Source: Candidatus Saccharimonadota bacterium (GTDB lineage: Bacteria > Patescibacteriota > Saccharimonadia > Saccharimonadales > Saccharimonadaceae). Taken from it: DNA of 64,000 nucleotides. Positions 35,285 to 49,822 of the stretch are shown piece after piece (position 1 is the first letter of the stretch; the number at the start of each line of letters is the position of its first letter). Where the stretch lies: assembly GCA_020428315.1 (NCBI GenBank), contig JAGQNA010000003.1, positions 155 through 64,154 on the forward strand, written 5' to 3'. Position numbers and translations under genes: made by a program. Under the pieces are notes generated by a model. It was not told the origin of the DNA. It did no database searches and saw nothing but the letters and a program-made list of their open reading frames with translations.

Positions 35285-36976
35285 TTGCAGAATATGAAGG
35301 GTTGGTGGCGAAAACACGTACTAGTACGAAAAATAGCTATTGCCTGCGGTGGGTTGTATGTGTTGGTAATTGGCTTTCAGCTGGCCTATCCTAGCGATTT
35401 AGCACTACCATTTGCAGAAATTGACAATAAGTCAGTTGGCATGATGCGTAAAGATGAGATTGCAAAACAAGTACAGGATGATTATGGTGACACTAAAATC
35501 GTAACTACTATTCACAACAAAACAACTGCGACACCTTTGCAGGAAACGGGATTGAAGATAGATACCAAAAAAATCAACAGTCAACTAACTGACTATCCTT
35601 GGTATTGGCGTATTATACCGTTCAGCAGCGTTATTATAGGTGTAGGCAGAAACGTACACGTGGCACATTATGCTGATCAAAAAGAATTTATAGTGTATGC
35701 GAGTGAACGAGGTAAAGAATGTTCAATTACGCCAAAAGATGCAGGAGTGGTAGTTAAAAATGGCAAAGTTCAGTTAGATAAAGCAGTGCATGGCAGTGAG
35801 TGCAAAAGTAGCGATCTTGCAAAGCAGCTTACGGCTGTACCGTTGAATAAGAATAAAACGGAAGTTAAGATCGTGCCAGCAACAGTGCAGCCAAAGCGTC
35901 TAGATAAGGACGTGCAGAATGTGCTAGGAGAAGCTAGAAAAATCACAGCACATAAAGTTACACTCGATGCTGTGGGTAAAACGTACAAAGTAGATAAAGC
36001 AATGTTAGTATCGTGGTTGTCATTCCCCGAAGACCCAAAAACCAAGAAACTTACAGTTGCAACTTCACCCGATGCTATAAAAGCATATTTGGCGACTGTA
36101 CAGAAAGAGGTACAAATAAAACCGGGTGTAACAACAATTACTACACGTGATGGTATAGAGGTTTCACGAGTAAATGGTGCTTCTGGACGCGGTATAGATG
36201 AAACGGCTACTGCCAAAGCTATTGCCAAACAGGTAGCTACCGGTAGTGGAACGGTGAAAGCAGCAATTGCACCGTTGCCGCCAACTTTGCACTACATTCG
36301 TTCGTATAGCAAAACACCGGAAGGGTTGCAGGCGTTACTCGATGATATTGTCAAAGGAAAAGATATGGCAATTTCAGTGCGGCGGCTTGGCGATGCAGGT
36401 GTAAGTGCCAATGGAAATAAGCGGTATCACCCAGCTAGTACGTACAAGCTATTGGTGGCGTATTCGGTACTAAAACGAATTGATGCTGGTCGATTGAGCT
36501 GGGGGAAAACGGCGAGTGGCGGGCAAACAGTAGCGCAGTGTTTTGACAAGATGATCGTCTCGTCGGATAACCCGTGCGCGGAATGGTTTGGCGGTACAGC
36601 AATCGGGTGGGGAGCGGTGCACAACGAAGCCCGAGCACTGGGACTGAACAATACAGTACTAAACAGTGCATTTGTTTCAACTGCTAACGATCAAGCACTC
36701 TTTTTACAAAAATTAGAATCGAACCAGCTAGGGCTAAGGGAAGAGTCGCGGGCAAAGCTAATAAATGCTATGAAACGACAGGTATTTCGTAAAGGAATTC
36801 CTGCTGGTGTAAGCGCACCAGTCGCCGACAAAGTTGGCTTTTTAGATGGCCTATTACACGATAGTGCGATTGTATATGCACCAAGCGGGGTGTATGTAAT
36901 CGTTATTTACAGTAATGGCAGTAGCTGGGGGGCAATTGCTGACGCCGCAAGACAAGTTCAAACACAGATACAATAG
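35285..36976 (+). CDS. Membrane-anchored serine hydrolase: large N-terminal ectodomain + class A beta-lactamase/PBP-like domain (start may be ATG 35294)
   Basis: SxxK (ASTYK), SDN (VSSDNP), KxG (DKVGF) motifs in the C-terminal ~230 aa; TM helix near N-terminus. Confidence 0.65.
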   Translation: MQNMKGWWRKHVLVRKIAIACGGLYVLVIGFQLAYPSDLALPFAEIDNKSVGMMRKDEIAKQVQDDYGDTKIVTTIHNKTTATPLQETGLKIDTKKINSQLTDYPWYWRIIPFSSVIIGVGRNVHVAHYADQKEFIVYASERGKECSITPKDAGVVVKNGKVQLDKAVHGSECKSSDLAKQLTAVPLNKNKTEVKIVPATVQPKRLDKDVQNVLGEARKITAHKVTLDAVGKTYKVDKAMLVSWLSFPEDPKTKKLTVATSPDAIKAYLATVQKEVQIKPGVTTITTRDGIEVSRVNGASGRGIDETATAKAIAKQVATGSGTVKAAIAPLPPTLHYIRSYSKTPEGLQALLDDIVKGKDMAISVRRLGDAGVSANGNKRYHPASTYKLLVAYSVLKRIDAGRLSWGKTASGGQTVAQCFDKMIVSSDNPCAEWFGGTAIGWGAVHNEARALGLNNTVLNSAFVSTANDQALFLQKLESNQLGLREESRAKLINAMKRQVFRKGIPAGVSAPVADKVGFLDGLLHDSAIVYAPSGVYVIVIYSNGSSWGAIADAARQVQTQIQ

Positions 36977-37015: not shown

Positions 37016-38098
37016 TTATTTACTAACGTTAAATCTGAATTCTACTACATCATTTGCCTGCATGACATAATCTTTACCTTCGGTACGAATCTTGCCAGCA
37101 TTTTTGGCAGCCTGTTCACTGCCTGCGGACACTAGGTCTTCGTAGGATACTATTTGGGCGGCGATGAAGCCTCTTTCAAAGTCAGTGTGGATGACGCCAG
37201 CTGCTTGAGGCGCAGTTGCACCTTTTTTAATTGTCCAGGCTCGAACTTCCTTGGGGCCAGCGGTCAAATAGCTCTGCAGTCCTAGTGTATCGTATGAAAC
37301 ATGAATCATTTGCTCGAGGCCAGTTTCTTTAACCCCGTAACTTTCTAGTAGCTCATGGGCGTCGTTGGAGTCAAGTCCTTTGAGTTCTTCCTCGAGTTTG
37401 GCGCAGACGAATAGGCACCTAGCTGGAGCTACTAGTTCAGATAGTTTATTTTGTTTTTCATTGTTAGTCAGGGTATCTTCATCGACATTAAATGCGTAGA
37501 TTATGGGTTTAGCTGTTAGCAGGTGAAGGTCGTCGATTGATTCGACATTAAGATTAGGTATAGAAGATAGAGGTATACCAGTTTTAAGTTGTTCAACTAA
37601 ACTCTCTAGATAATTTAATTGTTCACGAATAGCTGGTTTTGACTTAGACTCCTTTTGTAACTTAGGTAGTCTTTGTTGAATCGTTTGCATGTCTGCCAGA
37701 ATTAGCTCAGTGTTGATAGTTTCAATATCGGAAGCAGGATTAACTTCACTGTCATCGTGACGTAGAATCTCACCATTATGAAATGTACGAACTATGTGTA
37801 GTATGGCGTTACATTGTCTAATGTTTGCTAGAAATTTATTACCTAAGCCTTCACCCTTTGAAGCACCCGCTACAAGACCAGCGATATCAACAAATGTGAC
37901 AGAGGCAGGTAATTGTTTGTCTGATCCGTAAATTTCAGCCAGTTTTTGTAATCGTTCGTCTGGTACAGGGACTATACCGGTGTTTGGTTCGATCGTTGCA
38001 AAGGGGTAGTTGGCTGCTAGGATATCATTATTTGTTAACGCATTAAAAAGCGTCGACTTGCCGACGTTTGGAAGACCTACGATACCAACACTTACCAT
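37016..38098 (-). CDS. ychF: Ribosome-binding ATPase YchF
   Basis: [19 protein letters not shown]-loop, C-terminal TGS-like domain, 360 aa. Confidence 0.95.
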
Positions 38099-38227
38099 AC
38101 TATAAGGTTAACAGATTTTACAGATTAAAAAAATATAGAAGTTGATAAAACGCTTGTGCATAATCAATATAAATGCTAAAGTAATTTGAGAATAATAATT
38201 ATTAACTGTAGACAGGAGTCTAGATAG

Positions 38228-38875
38228 ATGATAATAACAAAAAAACTATTTGTAACTTTAAGCGCAGTGCTTTCAATAACTGCATTAGTAGCTGCAACAC
38301 CTAGTGCTTATGCGGCGCTTACAGATTCAACAAATTTAACCCAGTCAATCACACCCGGAACATTGGCTACATTGATTGGTGACACTTCTGGTAATGAAGT
38401 CGCTACACCAAGTGTTGGCTTTACAGCTAAGTCTGTCTCTGGTAGCACTCAAACTAGTACAGGTACGTTCGGTACTAGCTCTGAGCGTATATATGTAGAC
38501 AACCCGGACGGTGCTGATAATGGCTGGACTCTAGCATTGGCCTCAACGGGTGGTTATACATCTGACTGGACAAGTGGTGGTAATCATTATCCATTTAACG
38601 CGGCTACATCTTCTGCAGGACAGTTAACAATCGATCCTTCTGTTGGTACAGTTACAGCCGATGTTGGTACAACTACAGGAGTATCAAAGGGATCTAGTGG
38701 TACTTACAATCACTCGGGTGGTACAGATTCAATCACCCTAATGACAGCATCTGCAGCATCAGACGATATTCACAAAGTCTATCTAACAGGTGTCTCGATG
38801 AGCCAGACAATCCCAGCGGGTACTCCAAGCGGTAGCTACGCTATCGACTTTACTCAGACAGTCACTGCGTCATAG
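38228..38875 (+). CDS. Secreted WxL-like domain surface protein (small)
   Basis: Signal peptide ending AYA; PGTLATL..., VSGSTQTSTG, VDNPDGADNGWTLALAS, IPAGTPSGSYAIDFTQTVTAS follow the WxL-domain pattern (second WxL degenerate). Confidence 0.6.
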   Translation: MIITKKLFVTLSAVLSITALVAATPSAYAALTDSTNLTQSITPGTLATLIGDTSGNEVATPSVGFTAKSVSGSTQTSTGTFGTSSERIYVDNPDGADNGWTLALASTGGYTSDWTSGGNHYPFNAATSSAGQLTIDPSVGTVTADVGTTTGVSKGSSGTYNHSGGTDSITLMTASAASDDIHKVYLTGVSMSQTIPAGTPSGSYAIDFTQTVTAS

Positions 38876-38921
38876 TGTATAATTAACCCTAGATGCTAAA
38901 TAATACTGTGAGGGGTGTATT

Positions 38922-40121
38922 GTGAAGAGGTTTATTGTTGCGATTATTGGTATATGTGCGATTGCAACAGTGCCATCACAAGTCGGGGCAGCTGGCTTAA
39001 TAGGTGGACGACCAGGTGCGCCAAGAGATAATGAGCCACGTTCGCGATCAATATTCATCCATACAATCGATGCTGGTAAATCTGCTAGAGATAAGGTGCT
39101 TGTATCAAACAGATCAGACAAAAAGCAAAGTGTCGAGCTGTATGCTGTCGATGCGATTACGACGAATACAGGGGCCTTTACTTGTCGCCAAAAAGCAGAA
39201 AAAAGTCTCGATGCTGGCACATGGATAAATCTATCGAAAAGTGAAGTTACCTTGTCACCAAGAACAACTGAACTTGTAGATTTTAGTATTGCAGTGCCAA
39301 ACAAGACCGATGTTGGTGAGCATAATGCTTGTATCGTATTTGCAGCTAAAGACGATGTTGAAAAAGTAGGCGGTAGTTTGACTATCCGAACAAGATCGGC
39401 GATAAGAGTTGCAATAACAATTCCGGGTGAGCTAAAGCGTGGTGTTAATATACAGAGCTTTGATGTTAAGCAAAACAATGACGTACAAACCTTTACAGTG
39501 CTTATGCGTAATACTGGTAACGTTTCGGCTGATACAAATGTAGATGTACAGATGAAGTCATTGTTTGGTAAAGTGGCCTATACTAACCACGGCCAATATC
39601 CTGTACTATCTGGAAATAGTCTTGAAGTGAACTATGACAACAAGAAAACTCCATTTTGGGGTGGTTTTTATTTAGCTGACGCCACGTTGTCTTATAATAA
39701 AGATGCCAACAAATGGGACACAAAGGCAAAAAACACACTCCAGACAGAAAAATCTGGTACTAAAATAATATTTGTGATCCCGCAACTGCCAGCTATTATC
39801 GTCTATTTTGTAATTATATTGGTAGTATCAGGAGTTGTGGCTTATTGGTGGTTTGAGAAACGAAAAGTTCAATTGATTCTTGATACATGGCAACATCATA
39901 AAATTAAAAAGGGTGATACACTTGACTCTCTATCTACCGAGCGAAAAGCGAACTGGCATTTGGTTGCAAAGGTTAATAAGCTAAAGGCGCCATATACGTT
40001 GAAAGTAGGTGATAGCATACTATTGCCTCGCCGACCGAGGAAAAGTAGTGACACGGCAATACAAAGTAAATCAAAGACAATAAAAACAAATAAAACAACT
40101 GTAAAATCTAAAGAGCCATAG
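38922..40121 (+). CDS. DUF916/DUF3324-like (WxL-interacting) protein with C-terminal TM helix followed by a LysM domain
   Basis: Signal peptide; SIFIHTIDAGKSARDKVLVSNRSDKKQSVELYAVDAITTNTGAF...; TM LPAIIVYFVIILVVSGVVAYWWF; LysM HKIKKGDTLDSLS...VNKLKAPYTLKVGDSILLP. Confidence 0.6.
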   Translation: MKRFIVAIIGICAIATVPSQVGAAGLIGGRPGAPRDNEPRSRSIFIHTIDAGKSARDKVLVSNRSDKKQSVELYAVDAITTNTGAFTCRQKAEKSLDAGTWINLSKSEVTLSPRTTELVDFSIAVPNKTDVGEHNACIVFAAKDDVEKVGGSLTIRTRSAIRVAITIPGELKRGVNIQSFDVKQNNDVQTFTVLMRNTGNVSADTNVDVQMKSLFGKVAYTNHGQYPVLSGNSLEVNYDNKKTPFWGGFYLADATLSYNKDANKWDTKAKNTLQTEKSGTKIIFVIPQLPAIIVYFVIILVVSGVVAYWWFEKRKVQLILDTWQHHKIKKGDTLDSLSTERKANWHLVAKVNKLKAPYTLKVGDSILLPRRPRKSSDTAIQSKSKTIKTNKTTVKSKEP

Positions 40122-40125
40122 GTCT

Positions 40126-41835
40126 TTGATGTTTCGTATACGCCTCAAACATACTAAAACTAGATTAATTGTCATTGTTATTCTAGCTAGTATTAGTATA
40201 GTATTTCTTACGGCTACGGCTTGGGCGTTGACATTGACCACAACTTTAGACCCTAATGGAACAGTTACTGGTAACTGGACAGGCGGTGGAACGGCAGATG
40301 GTTCGTGTACTGGAAACTGTCAACGAGTTGATGATGGTAGCACCCCCGATGGTGACACAAGTTATGTATCAAGCTCAGCTGCGAATGTCGATGAGTACTC
40401 ACTACCAGATACAGTTGGCGGCCAGCGAGCTACGAGTATAAAGTTACGGGTTTATATGAAGCGACAGTCGGCTGAGTCATGTTTTTGGAACTGGGGCACT
40501 CCGAGCACAAACTTACTGCAGATGAATATTCGCATTGGCGGCACTTTGCAAACGCAGTCAAATAAAACCCCGACAGCTAACTATGCTTGGTATGAACAAG
40601 ACTACATAGGCACCTGGACGCAATCACAGATAAATAGCTTACAGATTTGGGTTAGTAAGTCTACTACAACTGGCTGTGTTCTTCGTAATAATAATGCGAC
40701 TTTTCGAATCTCTGCCGTGCAAGCAGTTGTTAGCTGGACTTCACCAGATTTGAATCAAGAGTCGAGCAGAGTTTATTTGAATACAGACAACGCTACCCCA
40801 GGAACGCCAATAGCTACGTCAAATAGCTTATCTGACGTACAGCATGATACGGCTTTTCGAGTTCGAATGGCAGTCAAGCCGACGGCGGTAGATTGGCAGA
40901 CTGATACTTGGGGCCCACATAGTAACACTTATAAATTGCAGTATTCTTCGAAATCTGCATCAAGTTGCGCCGCACAGTCTAGTGGCTGGGGTGATGTGTC
41001 TAGTGGATCGGGCAATATACGTTGGTACAACAATCCAGGCGTAGCCGACGGGGCAGCTATAACCGCGTACGCAAATGATCCAACTGTTGGCGGTAGCTTG
41101 GCGCATCAGACTTATAGAGAATCAAACAACTTTGGCTTAACAAACACAGTTACTACTGGAAATGCCGCCCTATGGGATTTCTCGCTACAAGATGTCGGTT
41201 CGACACCGGGTGATGATTACTGTCTAAGGATAGTCAAGTCAGACGGAACACTACTCGAGAGTTATAGTAACTACACAGAAGTGGTGGCAGTCGGAGATTA
41301 TGGTGTCAGTATTGTCAACAGTGCTGGTGTAGATGTAGCTGGTCCGCAAGTGACGTTTCCTAGTGCAGAGGTAAAAACATCGTGTAATGTTTCAAATGGT
41401 ACACTTGGCGTGTCTAGTCAAAAAGTGCGAATCAATAACGATATATTGAAAAATGGTTGGGACGTAAGTATTGCACCAACGAATGGCCCGACAGACTCGT
41501 GGCAATCGGGTGGAGAAGAGTATGATTTTAATGACAGCTCAGGCTGTTTAGACGGAGCAGATGCCGACTCGTTGGGTGGTTCACTCGAGGTGCAGGCTTC
41601 CTCGTCGACTGTTACACCAAAATCTGGCTGTAATAATACAGGAGTTAGTAAGGGTAGTAATGTATCGTTTGTTCAGCCGGGTGTCGACACGGTAAGTTTA
41701 GTTTCGGCCAGTTCGTCGGCATCACGTTTTTGCTACTGGGACGTAACCGGTGTTGGGCTAGAGCAGTTGATTCCAAAGGCTACACCGATTGGTAACTATA
41801 GTATAGATATGACAATAACAATGACGGCATTATGA
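40126..41835 (+). CDS. Large secreted surface protein whose C-terminal ~140 aa is paralogous to the WxL-like domain of ORF 38228
   Basis: N-terminal TM/signal; C-terminus NGWDVSIAPTNG...GVSKGS...IPKATPIGNYSIDMTITMTAL aligns with GWTLALASTGG...GVSKGS...IPAGTPSGSYAIDFTQTVTAS. Confidence 0.55.
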   Translation: MMFRIRLKHTKTRLIVIVILASISIVFLTATAWALTLTTTLDPNGTVTGNWTGGGTADGSCTGNCQRVDDGSTPDGDTSYVSSSAANVDEYSLPDTVGGQRATSIKLRVYMKRQSAESCFWNWGTPSTNLLQMNIRIGGTLQTQSNKTPTANYAWYEQDYIGTWTQSQINSLQIWVSKSTTTGCVLRNNNATFRISAVQAVVSWTSPDLNQESSRVYLNTDNATPGTPIATSNSLSDVQHDTAFRVRMAVKPTAVDWQTDTWGPHSNTYKLQYSSKSASSCAAQSSGWGDVSSGSGNIRWYNNPGVADGAAITAYANDPTVGGSLAHQTYRESNNFGLTNTVTTGNAALWDFSLQDVGSTPGDDYCLRIVKSDGTLLESYSNYTEVVAVGDYGVSIVNSAGVDVAGPQVTFPSAEVKTSCNVSNGTLGVSSQKVRINNDILKNGWDVSIAPTNGPTDSWQSGGEEYDFNDSSGCLDGADADSLGGSLEVQASSSTVTPKSGCNNTGVSKGSNVSFVQPGVDTVSLVSASSSASRFCYWDVTGVGLEQLIPKATPIGNYSIDMTITMTAL

Positions 41836-42221
41836 AAAAATATTTCTTAGCAGGACTAGCGATGTATGTATGTATGTATTTTATCGTTGTTCCAGTCGCA
41901 AACGCATCAGGTGAAGAAATCTATAGATTTAGACAGTGGATTGCACCAAAAGAGTGCGTTGAGAATAAGGTGGTAAACGGTGTTGATACACAGATCTTTC
42001 TAACCCCGAGTGATTGTAATCAGCTATTACACCCACCGCAGCGACCACAAACTACACCGGCAAATCCAACCTCTCCGACCTCAAATCCAAATAATTTTTT
42101 GATACCCGGTGTGCCGAACACTGGCTATGGAGCAGTGGCAGTCGGCTTACTATTTGGTATAGGGTTAATGCTTATATTGCTTGTGGCAATACGCATGGTT
42201 CAAAGGCTGGTATATAGGTGA
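41832..42221 (+). CDS. Small secreted protein with LPXTG-like sorting signal (VPNTG + hydrophobic helix + basic tail)
   Basis: Signal peptide; Pro-rich stalk; ...IPGVPNTGYGAVAVGLLFGIGLMLILLVAIRMVQRLVYR; start overlaps upstream stop (ATGA). Confidence 0.55.
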   Translation: MKKYFLAGLAMYVCMYFIVVPVANASGEEIYRFRQWIAPKECVENKVVNGVDTQIFLTPSDCNQLLHPPQRPQTTPANPTSPTSNPNNFLIPGVPNTGYGAVAVGLLFGIGLMLILLVAIRMVQRLVYR

Positions 42222-42236
42222 GCTTTAGGCTTAAGA

Positions 42237-42265
42237 TTGACTATATTTCAGTAATAATGTATAAT
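42237..42265 (+). promoter_or_regulatory. Promoter TTGACT-17-TATAAT driving a long structured leader
   Basis: TTGACT 42237-42242, exactly 17 nt, TATAAT 42260-42265; next credible start codon is ~275 nt downstream. Confidence 0.6.
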
Positions 42266-42470
42266 GTAAACCATCCAACGTCTAGTGTCACAAGTAATTA
42301 TAAAGCACTATAGATCGTTGGTGCGTAGTTAGCATCCTGCTTGAGCGAATTATTTGCTCGTGGTGATACGACTATTTAACAAAATGTTCTCAGCTACTTT
42401 TTTCTTCGATGACCTTTGCCAGTAGTATTTATAGTGCTAACTAGGCTATATACAGACGTGTATGGTACTG

Positions 42471-42498
42471 GTTAGCACTGTAAGTGCTAACGTTTTCT
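42471..42498 (+). terminator. Intrinsic terminator/attenuator hairpin inside the leader of ORF 42532
   Basis: GTTAGCACT-gta-AGTGCTAAC (8-9 bp) followed by GTTTTCT. Confidence 0.55.
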
Positions 42499-42531
42499 AG
42501 GAAATCCCTAGGAAGCCACCTTTGAAAGGAG

Positions 42532-43146
42532 GTGGTGGCTATGAACGGCCACAAACAGAAAACCCTCAGGATGGTCACTATGGCAATCCTGGGATTCTTT
42601 GCTTGGAGCGGCATTATAGTTGCCGCTCCGGCACAGGCGGACAGTGTCGGATGCTATCCAACACTGTCCGATCCGTGTTCTGACTGGACGCGAGTCCAGT
42701 CGGAGCAGCTCGTAGTCGATTACAACAACAGTAATCGGCAGCTGACAGTAATCATCCAGCGTCACTATGAGGCTGGATATTATCTCATCGGGGAAGGTGC
42801 TGCCTATCCCCATGTAGGTTTCTGGTATCTTGGCCAGGAGCCCCTTAGGTATCAGTGGTTCTGCCGGTCGGCAGAACCACTGTACCTAAAATATGAGTTC
42901 AATCGCTCCCTCGAATGGGATCCATTCGTTTGGGGGATTGTCGAAGCTAGGTGCAGTGATGGCACTACACCTAGCGTGATGACGGGTAAAACTACTCGTC
43001 ATCAAGCTTTGCAATTTTGTGCCGAAAGGCACAAAATTGCAAAGCGCAAGAAGGGGAGGGCCTTGAAAAAGGCCCTCCGCAACGGAACTACCAAGTTCCG
43101 TTGTGTAAAGCCTAAACGGGCGCATAAGCGTCCGTTTGGTAGCTGA
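42532..43146 (+). CDS. Hypothetical secreted protein, 6 Cys, polybasic C-terminal tail (likely start ATG 42541)
   Basis: SD AAGGAGG; signal peptide ...VAAPAQA; tail KIAKRKKGRALKKALRNGTTKFRCVKPKRAHKRPFGS; G+C about 53% by hand count of 42541-42740. Confidence 0.6.
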   Translation: MVAMNGHKQKTLRMVTMAILGFFAWSGIIVAAPAQADSVGCYPTLSDPCSDWTRVQSEQLVVDYNNSNRQLTVIIQRHYEAGYYLIGEGAAYPHVGFWYLGQEPLRYQWFCRSAEPLYLKYEFNRSLEWDPFVWGIVEARCSDGTTPSVMTGKTTRHQALQFCAERHKIAKRKKGRALKKALRNGTTKFRCVKPKRAHKRPFGS

Positions 43147-43242: not shown

Positions 43243-45234
43243 ATGATCAATAGCTTAATTCGAAGATCAATTTTGTTGTTCATTTTAATGGCTAGTGTTT
43301 TGTCCATTTTTTTTGTATTAATATTTGCCTCTCATAAAACGTATGCTAGTAGCCGTATAGTAACAATAAACCCTACTGTTGGTGATTCTGCTACCGCAGT
43401 GCATCTGATGAACATAATGTGCAACAGTTATGCAGTTGGTTTTGGCGCGTACATAACCGATGCTTCTATTAATAGTTCCGGTGTTGCTAGTTACAATGTT
43501 AATATTGTGTATAAGAAGTGTAATAACACAGCAACAAGAGCCTATGCATTAGTAGGCAACAGTGGACTTTGTCCATTGGTAGGCAGATATGGCGGTGGCA
43601 ATACTGGACAAGCATTTGATTGTGTAAAATATATTGGCGCCCCAAAGTATTCGACTGGCTCTGGCCTTGATTGTGAAAGTCCACCTGAATTAAATGATAG
43701 ATGCGTGTATCAGCCTGTATTCAATTCGATTGCCATAGCATATGATCAGCCGGTCGGCGTGGGTACTCAGTATTCGTTAACAAGATCAATACTGTATGGT
43801 ATTCCTGCTAGTCTGTGGCAACAACCACAAGGCTCTATAAATATTGGTGCTGAGACCCAAATGTGTCAATTCTATAAGGTTAAGCTTTCTAGAGACGCAG
43901 ATTGGAAAGATGGTGCTGGAATTTATGGCTGTCAATCTATATATTTATCTGTCTCATGGCGTGAGCGCTCCTACAATCTCACCCCAAATATCGCCATAGG
44001 TATAGATAGGTTTACTGGGCAAGCTAATATTCCAATAGGGGCAGATATATCTCAAGGATCAGCGGATGACCCGGTAGGTGAAAATCATAATTGGTTTGTT
44101 ACCAAAGCAGTATTTAAGGCTCCTATCAACAGAGGTGCTGTGGCATTGTCAGATGACGAGCCGTGTACATATTTTAATAAAAAATCGTCAAATGCGTTAC
44201 GCCATGGGGTGTGCGAGGAAGCTATTGGGGGCGGAAAAATATACCCAGGAAGCGGCAACTATTTCGGCACAAGACCTACAGGTAATATCCCTCTTGGTTA
44301 TTATATTTGCTATATGACATCAGTACAAAATCCAACCAGCCGATCGGATGATGATAGTAAATGGCGTCATAGTGACATAAAATGTGCTCAATCTGTTGCT
44401 ATTCCTAAGCTCCAAGTTCATGGTGGCGATTTACGAGTGGCTAGTGATAGTAATTGTACAGCCAAGAAGGGCTTTATTAACACTAGTATGTCGCGGATTG
44501 ACGGGCGACACTATGGTAGCTGGTCAGAGTTTGCTAGCTTTAGTCAGTGTAGTGATAGCAACTTTACTACGGGGGCAGAGCTAGAATCTGGTCAGGCTAG
44601 TGTTACGCCTATTGATCCCTACCATGGCTTAACGTTTGCAAATGGTGGTGGCTCGTACGGTAGCTACAGTACCGATACAAATATTGTACGTGGTGTCCAG
44701 CCTATTACAGATTGTCCAGCAAGTGTACCGTCAGACCATAGGTTTAGTAGCTTTGGAGCTTTTAAACTTAGTGTTGATGAAGGAAATGTAGCTGGTAGCT
44801 ACTGCGTGGGGAATAGTAGTAGCAATTTAAATGTAGATAGCGATGTTAAGTTAACGGGTAAACCCAGTGGGATAAAACAAATACCTCAAGTAATATTGAT
44901 TGGTAAGGACATAAACATTCATGAAGGAGTGTCAAGGCTTGACGCCTGGCTACTGGCTAGTGGAGATCTAAATACTTGTACCAATAGTACCAACAACCGC
45001 AATGCGACCCTAAAAAGTACTGTGTGCAACAACCAGCTAGTTATTAACGGCCCAGTATATACCAATAAACTGTATCCCGACAGAACTTTTGGTTCTCGTG
45101 ATGAAAATGATAAGGCTAAAGCCGGTGAGATATTTAACCTACCAGCGTCTACCAGTATATGGCTGTATAACCAGTCAAAGACTAGTGGTGCAATAGACAC
45201 GGTTAGCCTAAAAGAATTGCCACCAAGATATTAG
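43243..45234 (+). CDS. Large secreted/anchored Cys-rich protein of unknown function, immediately upstream of the T4P locus
   Basis: 663 aa; N-terminal hydrophobic SILLFILMASVLSIFFVLIFA; many Cys spread through the ectodomain; no pilin signal. Confidence 0.65.
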   Translation: MINSLIRRSILLFILMASVLSIFFVLIFASHKTYASSRIVTINPTVGDSATAVHLMNIMCNSYAVGFGAYITDASINSSGVASYNVNIVYKKCNNTATRAYALVGNSGLCPLVGRYGGGNTGQAFDCVKYIGAPKYSTGSGLDCESPPELNDRCVYQPVFNSIAIAYDQPVGVGTQYSLTRSILYGIPASLWQQPQGSINIGAETQMCQFYKVKLSRDADWKDGAGIYGCQSIYLSVSWRERSYNLTPNIAIGIDRFTGQANIPIGADISQGSADDPVGENHNWFVTKAVFKAPINRGAVALSDDEPCTYFNKKSSNALRHGVCEEAIGGGKIYPGSGNYFGTRPTGNIPLGYYICYMTSVQNPTSRSDDDSKWRHSDIKCAQSVAIPKLQVHGGDLRVASDSNCTAKKGFINTSMSRIDGRHYGSWSEFASFSQCSDSNFTTGAELESGQASVTPIDPYHGLTFANGGGSYGSYSTDTNIVRGVQPITDCPASVPSDHRFSSFGAFKLSVDEGNVAGSYCVGNSSSNLNVDSDVKLTGKPSGIKQIPQVILIGKDINIHEGVSRLDAWLLASGDLNTCTNSTNNRNATLKSTVCNNQLVINGPVYTNKLYPDRTFGSRDENDKAKAGEIFNLPASTSIWLYNQSKTSGAIDTVSLKELPPRY

Positions 45235-45281: not shown

Positions 45282-46331
45282 ATGAAGTTATTCAAAAGTG
45301 TGGGCAGTTTCTTTGCGCTTGATATTGGTACCAACGCTGTTCGTGTGGTTCAGCTAGATACAGTGGGTAATAATGTTTGGTCGCTTGCTCATTACGGCTA
45401 CATGAATATCGATGAGAAGTTATCTGCTTCTGACTCAGAAGAATCAAAACAACGGCTTGGAGAAGCAATATTGACCGTAGTTGGCCAAAGCGGTATTTCT
45501 ACTCGAAATGTGGTGCTAGGCTTACCTAGCCAGAAAACATTTACTACTGTGGTTGAAGTACCAATCACAAATGATTCAGAGCTAGCCAGTTTAATGAAAT
45601 ACCAGGTTGATCAGCATATACCAATGAGTGTTGATGATGCAAAAATTGATTGGTCGGCACTTGGGCCAAGCTTGCGAGACCCTAAAATGCAAGAAGTATT
45701 AATTACCAGTACTGCGATTGAGTACACCGAGAACCGACTTGAATTTATTGAGGGACTTGGATTTGATGTAATTGCCGCTGAGCCAGACCCTATAGCGATG
45801 ATACGCTCGTTGCTTCCTGCTAATTCGCAAGATGCACAGCTTATTGTCGACATCGGTGAACAATCGACAAATTTGGCACTTGTATTTGGTGACGCACCAC
45901 GGTTAGTGCGAAGTATTCCGACTGGGCTAAGTACCTTAGTTAAAACAGCTGTCCAAAATTTAAATGTTAAAGATGAGCAGGCTAGGCAGTTTATTTTAAA
46001 ATTTGGTCTTGCGCAGGACAGGCTAGAGGGTCAGGTTTATAATGCGCTTGAGTCAACTCTTGACGCATTTGTGAGTGAACTTACAAAATCCGTTAAGTTT
46101 TTTCAAACTAGGTATCCTGGCATAAGTGTATCTAGGATTTTAATGTCTGGTTATGGTATGAGTATTCCGAAGTTGAGCGACTATGTTAGTACAAAATCTG
46201 GCCTTGCGACTATTCAGGCAAATCCTTGGCAGAAAGTGCAAGTCTCTCAGGCCGATCAGCAGAAAATATTGCCAGTCGCTAGTGAGTTTGCAACCGTTGT
46301 TGGGCTAGCACAAAGGGATACCAGCATATGA
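45282..46331 (+). CDS. pilM: Type IV pilus assembly protein PilM (actin-like ATPase fold)
   Basis: FALDIGTNAVRVVQL N-terminal phosphate-1-like motif; first gene of a pilMNO-like trio. Confidence 0.85.
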   Translation: MKLFKSVGSFFALDIGTNAVRVVQLDTVGNNVWSLAHYGYMNIDEKLSASDSEESKQRLGEAILTVVGQSGISTRNVVLGLPSQKTFTTVVEVPITNDSELASLMKYQVDQHIPMSVDDAKIDWSALGPSLRDPKMQEVLITSTAIEYTENRLEFIEGLGFDVIAAEPDPIAMIRSLLPANSQDAQLIVDIGEQSTNLALVFGDAPRLVRSIPTGLSTLVKTAVQNLNVKDEQARQFILKFGLAQDRLEGQVYNALESTLDAFVSELTKSVKFFQTRYPGISVSRILMSGYGMSIPKLSDYVSTKSGLATIQANPWQKVQVSQADQQKILPVASEFATVVGLAQRDTSI

Positions 46332-47050
46332 TTCAAGTAAACTTAATTCCAAACGTTAAGCAAGAGTTTATAAAAGCACAGCGAATGCGCAACCTAGTGA
46401 TATCTATTTCGATAGTGGTATCGATTGCTAGTGTGGCAGTAGTTGTGGTTATGGGTATGTACGTTTTTGGGGTACAGGGTTTTCGCAATAGTCAGGCAGA
46501 TAAAAATATAACGAAAGGCGTTAATGAGCTAAAGGCTGTACCAGATCTAGACAAAGCGTTAACAGTGCGTAATCAACTTCAGAATATTGATTCAATTTAC
46601 GATAAAACACCGCTTTCTGCAAGAATGTTTGATGTTCTTGCAACAGTTACTCCCTCTGATGAAAATAAGGTTAGCTTGACTAAATTTGATTTAGATATCG
46701 TTGATGGATCTATTCTCATAGAGGGCAAGACGTACAACGGCTATAAAGCATTAGATGCGTTTAAAAAGACAATCTTGGCAACAAAGTTTTCGTTTACTGA
46801 TCGGAATAGCAAACAAAATGATGAGGTTCCATTAACCGATGAGATAGTCGATGGTAATAGGAGTTTTGGTGAGGATGAGAGTGGCCAAAAAGTACTATCA
46901 TTTAGTTTTAGCTTTAAGTACGCACCTGAATTATTGAGTAGATCATCGGTAGAACCGAAAATTATTGGCCCAAAGAAAACAAATGCAACTGATTCGGCGC
47001 TTGAGATACCGAAGAGTATATTTGAAGTAAGTAGTGGAGGTGATAAGTAA
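46328..47050 (+). CDS. pilN: PilN-like pilus assembly protein
   Basis: MIQVNLIPNVKQEF (INLLP-like) followed by one TM; start overlaps pilM stop. Confidence 0.7.
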   Translation: MIQVNLIPNVKQEFIKAQRMRNLVISISIVVSIASVAVVVVMGMYVFGVQGFRNSQADKNITKGVNELKAVPDLDKALTVRNQLQNIDSIYDKTPLSARMFDVLATVTPSDENKVSLTKFDLDIVDGSILIEGKTYNGYKALDAFKKTILATKFSFTDRNSKQNDEVPLTDEIVDGNRSFGEDESGQKVLSFSFSFKYAPELLSRSSVEPKIIGPKKTNATDSALEIPKSIFEVSSGGDK

Positions 47051-47835
47051 TGGCTGGTCAACAAGGCACTGCTCTGCGAAAACGACAAAAAATTAAGCAG
47101 GCTGGTCGCATGATGTTTTTCTGGGTAGCTGGAGCATCTGTCATTGTTGGAGCATCTGCGGTTGTTCTTTTCTCAATGACTCAAAAACTCATATTTAATG
47201 AACAGGTGTTAGCAAAGAAGGGCCAGACTATTTCACGGCTTGAACAGAACAAAAAAATTGTTCCCGAACTCAAAGATAATGTACGACTGCTTAACACAAA
47301 TCAGAAGCTGATTAACCTGCAGACGCCAGCCGATGCACAGCCAGTACAGGTTATATTTGACGCTTTGCCTACTACAGCAAATGGAGAGGCTCTAGGCTCT
47401 GCCTTGTCTCATCCAAAATTACTTGGAGATAGCAGTATAACTGTGATATCAAGCAGTGTTGGCGATAGTAGTATCGACAGTGCAAGCAGTAGCTCGTCTT
47501 CTAGCAGTTCAACTTCAGCTACTTCGGGTACTAACTCTGGTACTACTTCTAGCACCTCAAGTACAACCGTTAAACCCAGTGAAATTAGTTTTAGGTTCAC
47601 TGTATCGTCGTCTAGTGTAAATAACCTTCGCGATTTGCTATCTAGGATGAGTCGCTCGATTCGGGCGTTCAATGTTAGCTCCGTTAACTTTATGAATAGT
47701 ACAAAAAATTTCGAGATGACAGTAACTGGACAAGCCTACTATTTGCCTGCCAAGACTGTAGACACGACAACAGTTCAGGTTCCTGAAAAAAAGAAGGTAT
47801 CATCAGTAAGGAGGGCATCAAGTGAAAAAAAGTGA
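47050..47835 (+). CDS. PilO-like pilus assembly protein with a Ser/Thr-rich tract
   Basis: Basic N-terminus, one TM, coiled-coil segment, then SSSSSSSSTSATSGTNSGTTSSTSSTT. Confidence 0.5.
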   Translation: MAGQQGTALRKRQKIKQAGRMMFFWVAGASVIVGASAVVLFSMTQKLIFNEQVLAKKGQTISRLEQNKKIVPELKDNVRLLNTNQKLINLQTPADAQPVQVIFDALPTTANGEALGSALSHPKLLGDSSITVISSSVGDSSIDSASSSSSSSSSTSATSGTNSGTTSSTSSTTVKPSEISFRFTVSSSSVNNLRDLLSRMSRSIRAFNVSSVNFMNSTKNFEMTVTGQAYYLPAKTVDTTTVQVPEKKKVSSVRRASSEKK

Positions 47836-48046
47836 TATTGCTATGTTGATACTTGTGGTTGCAGTTAGCGTTATGGTGTCATACTTTACCGTTGGCTCAA
47901 TACCCGCTCTAAAGTTCTCTGACAAGCCAGTATCTGTAAAGACTATTGAAGAGTATAAGTCAGATATAAGTGAGGTAAATGGAGATATATTCCGTGAGGA
48001 TGCAATAAACCCAACAGTTGAAGTAACTATCGGCAACGGGGACTAG
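47822..48046 (+). CDS. Small single-TM protein within the T4P operon
   Basis: 74-aa ORF, GTG start overlapping upstream gene by 14 nt; TM IAMLILVVAVSVMVSYF. Confidence 0.45.
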   Translation: MKKSDIAMLILVVAVSVMVSYFTVGSIPALKFSDKPVSVKTIEEYKSDISEVNGDIFREDAINPTVEVTIGNGD

Positions 48047-48048
48047 TC

Positions 48049-49809
48049 ATGAGCGTGCTGACAGATCAAGCGCAGCAGAAGCTCGTTCAGCTATTAGTAG
48101 ATGAAGGACTTACAACTCGTGAGCTAATTGAGGCTAGTAAGGCCGAGGCGCAGCAAACCAATAAGCCATTGCTTAGTATTTTGGTTACGAACGATATTGT
48201 AGATGACGAGCTGCTTACACATGCAACTGCACATGTACTTGGTGTACCGTATGTCAATCTTAGAAACAGTGTAATCGACGAAAGCATACTTGGGTTAGTA
48301 CCTGAAGATTTAGCATCGCGGTTTATGGCAGTACCTTTAGCAGAAACTAATAATCGTTTGGCAGTGGCAATGATAGATGCCGATAACGTGCAAGCAGTTG
48401 ACTACCTAGCAAATAGCATAGAACGGCCAATAAAAGTGTTCATGGCGTCGCAAGAGAGCATCCAGCATATACTCGATCAGTATAAGACTGACCTATCGAC
48501 CGTCGATGAAGTTGCTGAAGAATCCAAGTCCGACTCTCTAGATCAGGAGCATAAAGAAATAAAAACTTTGGTTCAAGACTCACCAATTAGTCGTGCCCTG
48601 AGTACTATTTTAGAGTATGCCGTGAAGAGCAAGGCTAGCGATATTCATGTTGAACCGCTTGAAAAATCTTTAAAAATTCGAGTCCGAGTTGATGGGGTAT
48701 TGCGTGAGATTATGCAACTTCCAAAAAGTATTGAACCACCACTAGTGAGTCGGATAAAAATACTATCTTCACTTAAAATTGACGAACACCGTACACCTCA
48801 AGACGGTCAGTTTACTGTTGCTGTAAGTAATAAAGAAGTTGACCTTCGTGTGGCTATCAGTCCGGTGGTATGGGGCGAGCAAGTCGTTATCCGACTTCTA
48901 GATAAAAGTGGCAATACGTTTGATTTAGCAGATATGGGGTACATTGGTCGTGCACTTCGAACAATAAAAAAGGGTATTAAACGCCCAAGTGGGATGATAT
49001 TAACTTCTGGTCCAACGGGTAGCGGTAAGAGTACTAGTTTATATGCACTAATTAAAGAAATTAAAGACGATACAATAAATATTGTTACTCTTGAAGATCC
49101 AGTTGAATATAAAATGCAAGGGGTAAACCAGATACAAGTAAATACAGACGTTGGCTTGACGTTTGCCAGTGGTTTACGGTCAATCTTGCGTCAAGACCCA
49201 GATGTTGTGATGGTTGGTGAGATTCGAGATAAAGAAACAGCAAATCTTGCTGTTCAGGCTGCCTTGACTGGGCATTTAGTATTTAGCACACTTCATACAA
49301 ATTCTGCTGCAGGTGTACTGCCACGACTTTTAGACATGGGGATTGAGCCATTTTTAATAGCCAGTACTGTGAATACAATAATTGGTCAGCGACTAGTCCG
49401 TCGGGTTGCACCAAAGCGAGATATCTATAATTCCACACCAATAGAAACTCAGAATATTTTATCAACAGTTGGTCATTTATTACCGAAAGCAACTTCCGAG
49501 GCTCTTCAGGTAGCACAAGATTTAGGCTATAAAGACTTGCCACTAGCGGGTCAAAACGCTTATACTTTAGTTAAGGGGAAAGATTCTCCGCAGACGCCAA
49601 ATGGCTATGCTGGGCGGGCAGGTCTATATGAAGTAATGGATGTATCGGAAGAAATCCAGAACTTAATCATAAATCGTTCAACTAGCGCAGAAATTCAGCG
49701 ACTGGCTGTATCGCAAGGGATGGTCACAATGAGGCAAGACGGTTATCTGAAGTCATTGTGCGGCATAACGACATTAGAAGAAGTTAATCGTGTAGCGGCA
49801 GACATATAA
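48049..49809 (+). CDS. pilB: Type IV pilus extension ATPase PilB (GspE family)
   Basis: N-terminal GSPII-like domain; Walker A SGPTGSGKST; GEIRD and HLVFSTLHTN blocks. Confidence 0.92.
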   Translation: MSVLTDQAQQKLVQLLVDEGLTTRELIEASKAEAQQTNKPLLSILVTNDIVDDELLTHATAHVLGVPYVNLRNSVIDESILGLVPEDLASRFMAVPLAETNNRLAVAMIDADNVQAVDYLANSIERPIKVFMASQESIQHILDQYKTDLSTVDEVAEESKSDSLDQEHKEIKTLVQDSPISRALSTILEYAVKSKASDIHVEPLEKSLKIRVRVDGVLREIMQLPKSIEPPLVSRIKILSSLKIDEHRTPQDGQFTVAVSNKEVDLRVAISPVVWGEQVVIRLLDKSGNTFDLADMGYIGRALRTIKKGIKRPSGMILTSGPTGSGKSTSLYALIKEIKDDTINIVTLEDPVEYKMQGVNQIQVNTDVGLTFASGLRSILRQDPDVVMVGEIRDKETANLAVQAALTGHLVFSTLHTNSAAGVLPRLLDMGIEPFLIASTVNTIIGQRLVRRVAPKRDIYNSTPIETQNILSTVGHLLPKATSEALQVAQDLGYKDLPLAGQNAYTLVKGKDSPQTPNGYAGRAGLYEVMDVSEEIQNLIINRSTSAEIQRLAVSQGMVTMRQDGYLKSLCGITTLEEVNRVAADI

Positions 49810-49822
49810 GTAGGAGGGCAAT

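Follow-up and report, generated by a model that had tools for sequence, protein, structure and literature searches.

A highly diverged candidate WxL/WxLIP-type surface-complex operon in a Candidatus Saccharibacteria genome

Organisation of the locus

Four co-oriented genes on the + strand of a Candidatus Saccharibacteria genome (38228–42221 in the 64-kb stretch of DNA analysed here as a whole, further called the window) form a tightly packed operon. ORF check recovered all of them where an earlier note on this DNA had placed them, and every peptide motif quoted in that note was found in the sequences. Intergenic distances from gene 1 to gene 4 are 46, 4 and −4 nt, the last one being a 4-nt overlap between the start of protein 4 and the stop of protein 3. 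An AGGAG ribosome-binding site lies ~9 nt ahead of the protein 1 ATG; no strong + strand promoter was revealed by consensus scan in the intergenic region that separates the operon from ychF (Table 1). GC content of the operon resembles that of its surroundings. A protein combining PG_binding_4 with a beta-lactamase fold (Pfam) is encoded 1.2 kb upstream, and the upstream genes show no synteny at related loci. The earlier note also emphasized the position of the locus beside type IV pilus genes. These genes are real (PilM, PilB, PilT, PilC, pilin and PilD, from position 45282), but two unrelated genes intervene and the linkage was registered in 0 of 37 related loci, so that the adjacency was over-read and is not conserved.

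Table 1. Features of the operon and of its 5′ flank, in window coordinates
Feature	Position	Strand	Description
ychF ORF	37016-38098	-	Divergent from the operon
Intergenic region 5′ of the operon	38099..38227	+	AT-rich; sequence read directly; promoter presumed
Protein 1	38228-38875	+	ORF of 215 aa; signal peptide (...SAYA/A) and single WxL-like domain, residues ~30-215
Protein 1, motif 1	38525..38533	+	W100-T101-L102 in VDNPDGADNGWTLALA; true Trp-x-Leu; hydrophobic L104 at W+4
Protein 1, motif 2 equivalent	38837..38863	+	Y204-A-I-D-F208-T-Q210-T-V212; hhalign register and conservation
Protein 2	38922-40121	+	ORF of 399 aa; signal peptide, PGBD (DUF916), HBD-like domain, TM helix, LysM
Protein 2, PGBD/DUF916	39021..39335	+	Residues 34-138; PF06030, 37.4 bits vs gathering cutoff 27.3
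Protein 2, second Ig-like domain	39369..39755	+	HBD/DUF3324 equivalent, residues ~150-278; phmmer and hhalign
Protein 2, TM helix	39786..39842	+	Residues ~289-307; Kyte-Doolittle 2.79
Protein 2, LysM	39897..40028	+	Residues 326-369, C-terminal to TM helix; PF01476, E 1e-6
Protein 3	40126-41835	+	ORF of 569 aa; signal/anchor helix, then three beta-sandwich domains
Protein 3, WxL-like domain	41254..41829	+	C-terminal, residues 377-568; paralogous to protein 1
Protein 4	41832-42221	+	ORF of 129 aa; signal peptide, two-Cys module, Pro-rich linker, VPNTG, hydrophobic helix, basic tail
Protein 4, VPNTG	42111..42125	+	Residues 94-98; sortase-type sorting-signal variant

Domains of the four products

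Judged by sequence comparison, protein 2 is a WxLIP homolog. The order DUF916 then DUF3324, ascribed to it previously, was borne out for the first domain by Pfam (Table 1), while the DUF3324 model gave no match in this protein and the second domain was recognized by alignment. Residues 24–278 matched the solved EfmWxLIP1 (9i1y/9i25) in phmmer with E 1.4e-4 over both domains, the protein 2 family profile matched the same protein with E 7e-9, and comparison of the family with 7 canonical WxLIPs by hhalign gave 98.2% probability and E 3e-14 over 260 columns. In total 234 homologs, mostly DUF916+LysM, were found in Patescibacteria. The protein is strongly basic (K+R 59, D+E 36) and does not end in its TM helix, as had been supposed: another 92 residues lie beyond the helix and contain a bona fide LysM domain that was missed. 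This LysM is conserved throughout the family, the family profile matches LysM structures down to E 1.8e-13, and some Patescibacteria WxLIPs carry two or three such domains after the TM helix; it is missing from 7 of 7 canonical WxLIPs and from both actinobacterial DUF916 proteins examined. Across 31 family members the TM helix is flanked on average by 1.2 K/R on the N side vs 4.7 on the C side, and because of the positive-inside rule LysM is predicted to be cytoplasmic. Such a location would count against a simple surface-complex model; the domain may be a lineage-specific elaboration.

Protein 1, which corresponds to the “small WxL” protein, is acidic (K+R 6, D+E 14) and belongs to a family of 370 proteins whose named members come from Saccharimonadales/Saccharibacteria; among the 120 matches listed for this family no Pfam domain was annotated. 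The Pfam WxL model matched neither protein 1 nor protein 3, and when the threshold was relaxed to E <= 10 it still recognized 0 of 40 family members. Profile comparison nevertheless connected the domain family shared by these two proteins with canonical WxL, represented by 8 verified PF13731 proteins: hhalign gave 95.9% probability and E 6.3e-9 over 159 columns at 14% identity, with both motifs in register, while reversed and column-shuffled controls scored 8.5–14.8 vs 62.3 for the real comparison. In the opposite direction, with E < 0.01 as the limit, a canonical WxL HMM recognized 68 of 120 family members and none of 120 reversed decoys. Motif 1 is aligned with canonical GWtL, and its W100 and L102 are kept in at least 90% of the family. 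The second motif had rightly been called degenerate: Trp-x-Leu is absent there, Gln stands for the second Trp (Leu or Ile in relatives) and Val for Leu, the register being Y/Y, F/L, Q/W and V/L, with Y204, T209 and T211 among the conserved positions. DCA couplings 107-209, 103-213 and 102-210 pair the strands of the two motifs antiparallel, in agreement with the published description of WxL (PMC9772566). For protein 1 an all-beta structure was predicted by AF2 (pLDDT 82.7), and this model found no significant Foldseek match in the PDB (E at least 0.018, TM-score ~0.35). The solved WxL chain 9i25_A, which the fold library may not include, was absent from the best 50 matches, and the weak top ones were the donor-strand pilins/cannulae CanA, FimA/FimG, CsuA/B and CfaE (prob up to 0.92). 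On these sequence data protein 1 and the C-terminal domain of protein 3 are remote homologs of the WxL domain.

Protein 3 corresponds to the “large WxL” protein. Its C-terminus was said to repeat protein 1 over ~140 aa; the paralogy is confirmed by BLASTP (37% identity over 194 columns, E 2e-26) and by the family HMM (E 1e-72), but extends over ~190 aa, and the domain shares with protein 1 both the profile match to canonical WxL and the failure of the Pfam model. The AF2 model (pLDDT 80.3) places ahead of this domain (D3) a CBM/jelly-roll-like D1 (residues ~36-205) and an Ig-like D2 (~209-371). In Foldseek this model matched multi-Ig adhesins with E from 3e-6 to 1e-3 (PrgB, AgI/II C123, integrin legs), and CBM16 was matched locally (prob 1.0, TM-score ~0.5). 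Six Cys residues are invariant and 62 homologs were found. In a search of 1.84 billion proteins the WxL-like domain was C-terminal in all listed matches longer than ~300 aa, the proteins reaching 1,744 aa; many family members of ~360–430 aa have one extra domain before it, and relatives of protein 3 carry Laminin_G_3, H_lectin, BNR propellers, RCC1 or beta-helices as heads.

Protein 4 has all the traits noticed earlier, i.e. a Pro-rich composition, VPNTG, a hydrophobic helix and a basic tail, along with a conserved two-Cys module, QWIAPxEC...LTPxxCxxLLHPP. The motif [ASV]P[ND]TG with the helix and the tail is kept in the 6 closest homologs; distant ones without this motif retain the TM helix alone or are truncated. 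At 13 or more related loci a homolog is encoded immediately 3′ of the gene for the large protein. Similarity to the NCBIfam EF2685/EF0750 LPXTG family is weak and not significant (E 0.14). No sortase gene was detected within the window; sortase is encoded in more than half of CPR genomes (PMC6744442).

Distribution, relation to WxL clusters and origin

The small WxL-like and WxLIP-like genes are adjacent wherever the flank suffices in 37 related Patescibacteria genomes or loci, ~20 of which also encode a large protein that combines an exchangeable lectin- or Ig-type head with a WxL-like domain at the C-terminus. The module recurs in unrelated contexts, such as between rpoC and rpsL or after ftsZ/nrdR, and is widespread in CPR bacteria.

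The roles described for Lactobacillales/Bacillales (small WxL, CscB/Swp; WxLIP, CscA/Duf; large WxL, CscC/Lwp; LPXTG, CscD) find their equivalents here: a small single-domain protein, a TM-anchored WxLIP with two Ig domains, a large protein that varies in its heads and ends in an anchor domain, and a small anchored protein. The genes agree in order and size with those of canonical plasmid loci (106/195/333/603 aa in L. plantarum, for instance), a signal peptide is present in every product, an acidic small protein goes together with a basic WxLIP, the first Trp-x-Leu is retained in a domain with antiparallel motif strands, and remote homology covers the WxL domain and both domains of WxLIP. The differences are no less distinct. 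CPR proteins escape the Pfam WxL and DUF3324 models, Gln, Leu or Ile stands in place of the second Trp, and LysM follows the TM helix in the CPR WxLIP alone, the N-terminal motif of which is GGRPAxPxxxNPRTxSIFI vs canonical NQIDKxxxYFDLK. The small anchored protein is encoded last rather than first and bears the two-Cys module with [ASV]P[ND]TG or no sorting motif vs LPQTx. Finally, the host belongs to Patescibacteria, outside the range known for WxL clusters, whereas Firmicutes hold over 91% of known WxL proteins. Therefore the WxL-type locus proposed in the earlier note stands as regards three core components, which are remote homologs in the same order and architecture, but not as regards strict Pfam membership: of the models named there WxLIP_PGBD is found in protein 2, while WxL is missing from proteins 1 and 3 and DUF3324 from protein 2. 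We consider it likely that the operon represents a form of the Gram-positive WxL/WxLIP (Csc-type) surface complex that has diverged strongly and occurs throughout Patescibacteria.

One could suppose instead that the resemblance is an artefact, due to chance or to the composition of Thr/Ser/Gly-rich beta proteins, with the DUF916 gene alone being related, or that the genes were recently acquired from Firmicutes. The 44% S+T+G content of protein 1, the silent Pfam WxL model and the low hhalign identity fit the artefact. Clean reversal and shuffle controls, both motifs in register, covariation supporting the pairing of WxL strands and the strict association with WxLIP homologs at 37 loci speak against it; recent transfer disagrees with the native-like GC content, with the spread of the family across many CPR classes at 35–60% identity and with the fact that, among non-CPR WxLIP relatives found on plasmids, the nearest belong to Actinobacteria rather than to Firmicutes. 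This explanation is already largely refuted and hardly credible.

The actinobacterial relatives come from plasmid pCCh of Clavibacter phaseoli and from a Streptomyces goshikiensis plasmid. Among plasmid-borne sequences a DUF916 protein of this group gave the best tblastn match to protein 2, and it outscores Firmicute WxLIPs with the Patescibacteria WxLIP HMM. Weak matches to the canonical WxL HMM were obtained for an adjacent unannotated small protein in Clavibacter (E 7e-6) and for the C-terminus of a large RICIN protein in Streptomyces (E 1e-3). Unlike the CPR form, these DUF916 proteins have no LysM and their genes are set among glycoside hydrolases and sugar ABC transporters; the small Clavibacter protein gave no significant match to the Patescibacteria small-protein profile.

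Proposed assembly and possible function

Based on these data one can propose that the four products, with signal peptides predicted in each, are exported via Sec, and that protein 2, consisting of PGBD and HBD, is tethered to its own membrane by the TM helix with the basic stop-transfer flank. By analogy with the WxLIP-WxL pairs of Firmicutes, a PGBD beta-strand would complete an incomplete beta-sandwich in the WxL-like domain of protein 1 and in that of protein 3, and both proteins would thereby be held non-covalently at the cell surface. Protein 3 may then project its CBM-like and Ig-like head outward and bind a ligand on a surface, the most plausible one being an envelope glycan of the host bacterium that Saccharibacteria live on. 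Protein 4 could serve as a small stalked accessory fixed by its membrane helix, with cross-linking to the wall by sortase as a further possibility.

Completion of an Ig-like sandwich by a strand from a two-domain partner is also typical of chaperone-usher pili (Pap/Fim/Csu), the class of the weak top Foldseek matches of protein 1. Here, however, both usher and outer membrane are absent, the sequences are not similar, and the partner is membrane-anchored; the resemblance is at best analogical. Another system of interest is the Pam pilus operon of the Saccharibacterium Ca. Mycosynbacter amalyticus, compared through its published description (bioRxiv 10.64898/2026.03.03.709456). According to this alternative the operon would give rise to a short fibre linked by donor strands and related to Pam, WxL-like domains would be truncated Ig-like pilin domains, protein 2 would be a membrane-anchored chaperone or anchor like PamC/PamD or PamR, and head-to-tail strand exchange would join the subunits rather than park them on peptidoglycan. 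Pam subunits are Sec-exported beta-sandwiches, one single-domain and others multi-domain with an N-domain, a linker and a C-terminal strand-accepting domain, and two-Ig/FnIII strand donors end in a TM helix, which matches proteins 1, 3 and 2, respectively. Disulfides of Pam subunits have a parallel in the invariant Cys of protein 3, many WxL-like family members are near PamB in size, and both systems are reported from CPR bacteria only. The Foldseek matches of protein 1 point in the same direction, though none is significant; purified L. plantarum WxlA oligomerises (PMC13522541), and the Firmicute WxLIP itself is predicted to insert a strand into WxL (PMC10599100). On the other hand, pam comprises seven genes with two chaperones vs four and one here, and is consistently flanked by ATP-synthase genes, none of which was found in the window or in 37 related loci. 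DUF916, WxL or LysM annotation is not mentioned in the Pam paper, and sequence searches with the protein 2 profile yielded no PapD/FimC-type chaperone. A Pam-related fibre seems unlikely.

As to the function of the WxL/WxLIP-like complex, the original Csc hypothesis for Lactobacillus, put forward by Siezen et al. in 2006, is said to have been polysaccharide capture or a cell-wall role. Transferred to this operon, it implies that the CBM-like head binds environmental or wall glycans for nutrients or remodelling and does not serve partner attachment. The CBM16-like segment matched in protein 3, the heads of lectin type in its relatives (Laminin_G_3, H_lectin, BNR), LysM in protein 2, the PG_binding_4 protein upstream and the neighbourhood of actinobacterial DUF916 genes are in line with this idea. 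It is weakened by the absence of hydrolase and transporter genes from the module both in the window and in related CPR loci, and by the upstream genes not being syntenic elsewhere, and seems improbable. Firmicute WxL proteins characterised by experiment are adhesins (PMC13522541) and wall-binding proteins (PMC10599100). Attachment to a host or partner is a plausible predicted function, and the operon is a good candidate for how CPR epibionts may display binding proteins on their surface.

Organisation of the operon and its second product

Four genes of the plus strand, in which the earlier note had recognised a WxL-type cell-surface locus, were found exactly where it had placed them. They are separated by 46, 4 and −4 nt, the gene of protein 1 is preceded by an AGGAG ribosome-binding site, and all four products (4/4) start with a Sec-type, signal-peptide-like N-terminus. 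Protein 1 shares 100% identity with NCBI KC952_00980 (Candidatus Saccharibacteria). The GC content of the operon is similar to that of the remainder of the window, and recent horizontal transfer was rejected, as there is no compositional anomaly in the window.

Features of the operon and of its neighbourhood (positions in the window)
Feature	Position	Strand	Description
Protein 1	38228-38875	+	ORF, 215 aa; small WxL-like
Protein 2	38922-40121	+	ORF, 399 aa; WxLIP-like
TM helix, LysM and tail of protein 2	39786-40121	+	LysM C-terminal to the only TM helix
Protein 3	40126-41835	+	ORF, 569 aa; large WxL-like
Protein 4	41832-42221	+	ORF, 129 aa; small anchored
PG_binding_4/beta-lactamase-fold gene	35285-36976		563 aa
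Intergenic region after the operon	42222-42531		310 nt
Promoter-like element	42237-42265		TTGACT-17-TATAAT
Terminator-like hairpin	42471-42491
First intervening gene	42532-43146		204 aa, 6 Cys
Second intervening gene	43243-45234		663 aa, 18 Cys
T4P set	45282-53625		starts with pilM

Judged by its sequence, protein 2 is a WxLIP, i.e. a protein composed of PGBD (DUF916), HBD (DUF3324) and a TM helix. Its residues 34-138 correspond to WxLIP_PGBD/DUF916 (Pfam PF06030) with 37.4 bits at a gathering cutoff of 27.3, so that the first of the two domains assigned in the earlier note was confirmed by Pfam. For the second one the Pfam DUF3324 model gave no match in protein 2, but two alignments extend through the HBD. 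In a phmmer search of PDB sequences residues 2-266 of EfmWxLIP1 (9i1y_A, 9i25_C) were aligned to residues 24-278 of protein 2 (E 1.4e-4), which spans both Ig-like domains and so reaches the HBD region; with the profile of 31 protein 2 family sequences this match rises to E 7e-9. Comparison of the family by hhalign with seven canonical proteins of DUF916+DUF3324 type, encoded on Firmicute plasmids (98.2%, E 3e-14, 260 columns) covered template columns 1-281 of 351. The canonical motif NQIDKxxxYFDLK is absent from the protein 2 family, and the equivalent position is occupied by a different, highly conserved N-terminal segment GGRPAxPxxxNPRTxSIFIxTL. Of the 234 members that could be detected in the family, virtually all come from Saccharibacteria or other Patescibacteria, and most combine DUF916 with LysM. 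Public annotation lists these WxLIP homologs as “DUF916” or “LysM” proteins, while their small and large partners lack Pfam domains and were deposited under the name hypothetical protein.

Protein 2 had been described as ending in a TM helix, which proved wrong: 92 more residues follow, and they include a LysM domain. In 31 of the 31 family members examined a single TM helix lies C-terminal to the second Ig-like domain and is followed by a tail of 63-138 aa with LysM (31/31), while some CPR variants have extra copies of LysM (two or three). Canonical Firmicute WxLIPs have tails of only 7-20 aa after the helix, with the same basic stop-transfer flank, and LysM is present neither in them nor in two actinobacterial DUF916 proteins. 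A short basic tail as the sole continuation of the TM helix, taken as a mark of WxLIPs, is thus not found in these members of the protein 2 family. The 15-residue flanks of the helix contain on average 1.2 K/R on the N side versus 4.7 on the C side (31 members), and according to the positive-inside rule this bias places LysM in the cytoplasm. Such a location, predicted here for the LysM of protein 2, is unusual. Kbp, which resides in the cytoplasm and provides a precedent for cytoplasmic LysM, was among the weak PDB matches of the family profile. Alternatively, the WxLIP helix may not span the cell’s own membrane at all, as was speculatively proposed in PMC10599100. A LysM predicted on the cytoplasmic side of the WxLIP helix is an anomaly that could show in what way the complex is coupled to the cell.

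The domain shared by proteins 1 and 3

Protein 1 is paralogous to residues 377-568 of protein 3 (37% identity, E 2e-26). The paralogy noticed earlier is therefore real, although it extends over ~190 aa rather than ~140. Assignment of the shared domain to the WxL family was not supported by Pfam PF13731, which matched neither protein at E <= 1 and none of 40 family relatives even at E <= 10; NCBIfam contained nothing for either protein. The comparison of profiles, however, aligned the whole domain. As a canonical reference we used 8 small WxL proteins from annotated loci on plasmids of Enterococcus, Lactiplantibacillus, Pediococcus and Bacillus, all 8 matching PF13731. In hhalign the shared-domain family matched them at 95.9% probability (E 6.3e-9, score 62.3) along 159 columns, which span the domain, while controls with either profile reversed or with columns shuffled 20 times scored 8.5-14.8. 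With the HMM of the same 8 proteins, 120 family members scored 11 bits at the median and 32 at most, and 68 of them had E < 0.01; reversed decoys scored no higher than 4.9 bits (median −3.8), none of them at E < 0.01. These data show remote homology to WxL, and proteins 1 and 3 appear to carry a divergent WxL domain.

The alignment sets VDNPxGADNGWTLxLA opposite V.DLRGSN.GWTLTV at motif 1 and AGSYxIDxTQTV opposite A.TY..TLTWNL at motif 2. Motif 1 is a true Trp-x-Leu (W100-T-L102 of protein 1), kept in at least 90% of the domain family. Motif 2, located in the C-terminal strand Y204-V212, is degenerate, as had been supposed: the aligned position has Gln in place of Trp (relatives have Leu or Ile) and Val in place of Leu, so that only the first part of the dual Trp-x-Leu motif is retained. 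In canonical WxL domains the motifs occupy neighbouring beta-strands that run antiparallel (PMC9772566). When 361 domain sequences (effective number 299) were analysed by mean-field DCA, the pairs 107-209, 103-213 and 102-210 ranked 2, 5 and 36, respectively, at a chance expectation of ~0.4 such pairs among the top 36, and by these couplings the strand of motif 1 pairs antiparallel with the C-terminal strand.

AF2 modelled protein 1 with confidence as an all-beta domain (pLDDT 82.7), for which Foldseek found no significant match in the PDB; donor-strand pilins and cannulae were the best of the weak ones. The solved WxL chain 9i25_A was outside the top 50 matches for the models of both proteins 1 and 3 in a fold library that may not include it. 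It is present in the PDB sequence set, where searches with proteins 1 and 3 and with the family profile retrieved nothing relevant. The attachment of known WxL domains to the cell wall is non-covalent (PMC13522541; PMC10599100), and WxL proteins serve as adhesins for fibronectin and collagen (PMC13522541).

Cluster architecture and distribution

Hassan, Chaudhuri & Williamson (2023) speak of a WxL gene cluster where one or more WxLIPs and two or more WxL proteins are encoded within four genes of one another (PMC10599100). The operon has this composition, with protein 2 as the WxLIP directly flanked by proteins 1 and 3, only if profile-level homologs are counted as WxL. The division into small and large WxL proteins can also be recognised: protein 1 consists of a signal peptide and one domain, while protein 3 has a head, variable in the family, and the C-terminal domain. 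The model of protein 3 contains three beta-sandwich domains, the paralogous one being the last (pLDDT 80.3); its whole chain resembles the multi-Ig adhesins PrgB and Antigen I/II C123, and a local match is of CBM16 type. The canonical L. plantarum locus is built of the same parts of nearly the same sizes (LPXTG 106, small 195, WxLIP 333 and large 603 aa), and in E. mundtii the LPXTG gene is followed by WxL (263), WxLIP (355) and then a large WxL. On the Enterococcus mundtii plasmid pLDW-8 a second copy of the locus (retrieved locus L003, 5917-6921) has its canonical WxLIP split into DUF916 and DUF3324 ORFs and is probably decaying.

When GTDB species representatives were scanned by motifs with 9 closer sequences as a query, 37 module loci were obtained; since the scan was limited by motifs, missing Firmicute or Actinobacteria matches are not evidence of absence. 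The loci belong to Saccharibacteria, Doudnabacteria, Falkowbacteria, Andersenbacteria, Kerfeldbacteria, Microgenomates and three MAGs labelled otherwise, probably by mistake. The labels Gammaproteobacteria or Limnocylindria of the MAGs with loci L042, L043 and L044 suggest mislabelled or mis-binned CPR contigs. According to HMM annotation of the 37 loci, the small WxL-like gene, sometimes duplicated, adjoins the WxLIP-like gene wherever the flank suffices, and a large protein with a C-terminal WxL-like domain is encoded in ~20 of them. A profile search of 1.84 billion representatives returned 760 clusters (50% identity), 680 of them at E <= 1e-10. Among the matches listed, with sizes up to 1,744 aa, the WxL-like domain is C-terminal in every protein longer than ~300 aa. 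Among the head domains of 48 large members are Laminin_G_3, H-type lectin, PATR, DUF2341, beta-helix, BNR, RCC1 propellers, Ig and fn3. The operon is conserved, and the module is widespread over many CPR classes, with modular lectin, propeller or beta-helix heads on a constant anchor domain.

Elsewhere the module resides in unrelated contexts, between rpoC and rpsL or after ftsZ/nrdR, and the flanking genes of the window, including its genuine T4P cluster, do not travel with it in related loci. The adjacency to type IV pilus genes, to which the earlier note had drawn attention, is therefore not a property of the module: PilM, PilN, p5, p6 and the upstream genes are not near it in other genomes. 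The only exception is a ychF homolog in L044, 48% identical to that of the window and, as in the window, ~3 kb upstream.

In at least 13 loci the large gene is followed, often with an overlap, by a homolog of protein 4. These homologs have in common a signal peptide, a conserved two-Cys module QWIAPxEC...LTPxxCDxLLHPP, a Pro-rich linker and a TM helix plus basic tail. In protein 4 itself the sorting-signal-like VPNTG precedes a hydrophobic helix and a basic tail; [ASV]P[ND]TG is confined to its six closest homologs, and the rest are truncated or have retained the TM helix alone. WxL gene clusters frequently contain a small LPxTG protein, a substrate of sortase. LPXTG proteins of canonical clusters are similar in size and layout, but have LPQT[NSD] and no Cys module. 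The match of protein 4 to NCBIfam EF0750_LPXTG (E 0.14) is not significant, and homology does not follow from it. Sortase is encoded in more than half of CPR genomes (PMC6744442); its TLxTC motif was not found in the 64-kb window.

Among plasmid-borne genes, tblastn matched protein 2 best to those of actinobacterial DUF916 proteins, which also outscore Firmicute WxLIPs with the HMM of Patescibacteria WxLIPs. On plasmid pCCh of Clavibacter phaseoli (locus L001, 5128-5754) an unannotated 208-aa neighbour of DUF916 weakly matches the canonical WxL HMM (E 7e-6); its comparison with the profile of Patescibacteria small proteins was not significant, with a 22-column C-terminal match alone. The C-terminus of a RICIN protein on a Streptomyces goshikiensis plasmid (locus L002, 3846-5843) also gives a weak match to the canonical HMM (E 1e-3). 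The literature describes WxL as “almost entirely Lactobacillales and Bacillales” (PMC10599100), and over 91% of known WxL proteins are in Firmicutes. Our data suggest that loci of WxL type are spread more broadly and that divergent ones also occur in Actinobacteria, the host phylum of Saccharibacteria. In a plasmid record labelled Klebsiella pneumoniae (H21, CP069367.1, 101758-102537) an unannotated stretch encodes a product 76.6% identical to EfmWxLIP1 of Enterococcus faecium; this is unexpected, and the record may be mis-assigned or chimeric.

Possible mechanism, Pam pili and the genomic neighbourhood

Binding of WxL by WxLIP was predicted (PMC10599100), and the complex is now solved as 9i25. 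The locus, being homologous to WxL/WxLIP clusters, probably works like them. Protein 2 would then be tethered to the membrane and, through strand complementation, hold proteins 1 and 3 by their WxL-like domains, protein 3 would present a glycan-binding head, plausibly toward the envelope of the host bacterium, and protein 4 may be an accessory anchored stalk. The locus is not covered by the curated definitions of the families, carries a LysM fusion specific to its lineage and belongs to a phylum for which such clusters had not been described. Among the papers searched, none combined WxL with Saccharibacteria, and DUF916 was mentioned in none of the CPR papers listed. Cultivated Patescibacteria live on host bacteria, and apart from type IV pili and Pam pili their contact proteins are largely unknown. 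Kinship with WxL/WxLIP offers a testable model of how CPR bacteria display proteins at the surface and recognise their hosts, and extends the range of a system known almost only from Bacilli to Patescibacteria and, apparently, to Actinobacteria.

Pam pili of the Saccharibacterium Ca. Mycosynbacter amalyticus are CPR-specific and consist of Ig-like subunits joined by donor-strand exchange (2026 preprint 10.64898/2026.03.03.709456; sequences WP_260763277-289, structures 25PZ and 25QA). Their single-domain tip subunit, subunits with an N-terminal as well as a C-terminal domain and two-domain chaperones/anchors with C-terminal TM helices (10.64898/2026.03.03.709456) mirror the parts of the module, though this likeness is by description only. 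The preprint (10.64898/2026.03.03.709456) mentions neither WxL nor DUF916 nor LysM. The pam operon has seven genes and is flanked by those of ATP synthase, while Walker motifs of AtpA/AtpD were found neither in the window nor in the 37 related loci; identity of the two operons is thus unsupported by neighbourhood. With this flank absent, seven genes in Pam and a comparison made by description, the link to Pam pili stays conjectural. We consider it rather unlikely that the module is an evolutionary and mechanistic bridge from Firmicute WxL/WxLIP complexes to the donor-strand-exchange pili. Were it so, WxL-type domains would be truncated Ig-like pilin domains accepting a strand, WxLIP would be a membrane-anchored chaperone or terminator, and an ordered strand-linked chain would run from the anchor through the large adhesin to the small cap, acting as a host-recognition device of epibiotic CPR bacteria with swappable lectin heads. 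The kinship of the module with WxL/WxLIP also poses the question whether WxL clusters and Pam pili have a mechanism of strand complementation in common.

Several features of the window surround the operon. At 1.2 kb upstream there is a gene for a protein with PG_binding_4 and a class-A beta-lactamase fold (Beta-lactamase2, E 1.6e-28), which is not syntenic with the module elsewhere. The T4P set is complete and comprises PilM, two unassigned genes, PilB (T2SSE+MshEN), a PilT-like ATPase, PilC (T2SSF), a pilin with the N-methylation motif and prepilin peptidase. Both proteins encoded between the operon and pilM have an N-terminal hydrophobic segment; they gave no Pfam or NCBIfam match and are not near the module in other genomes. 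The intergenic region that follows the gene of protein 4 has no match in Rfam. It contains a near-consensus promoter and, ~200 nt beyond it, a terminator-like hairpin, and could be a small RNA or the leader of the next gene.
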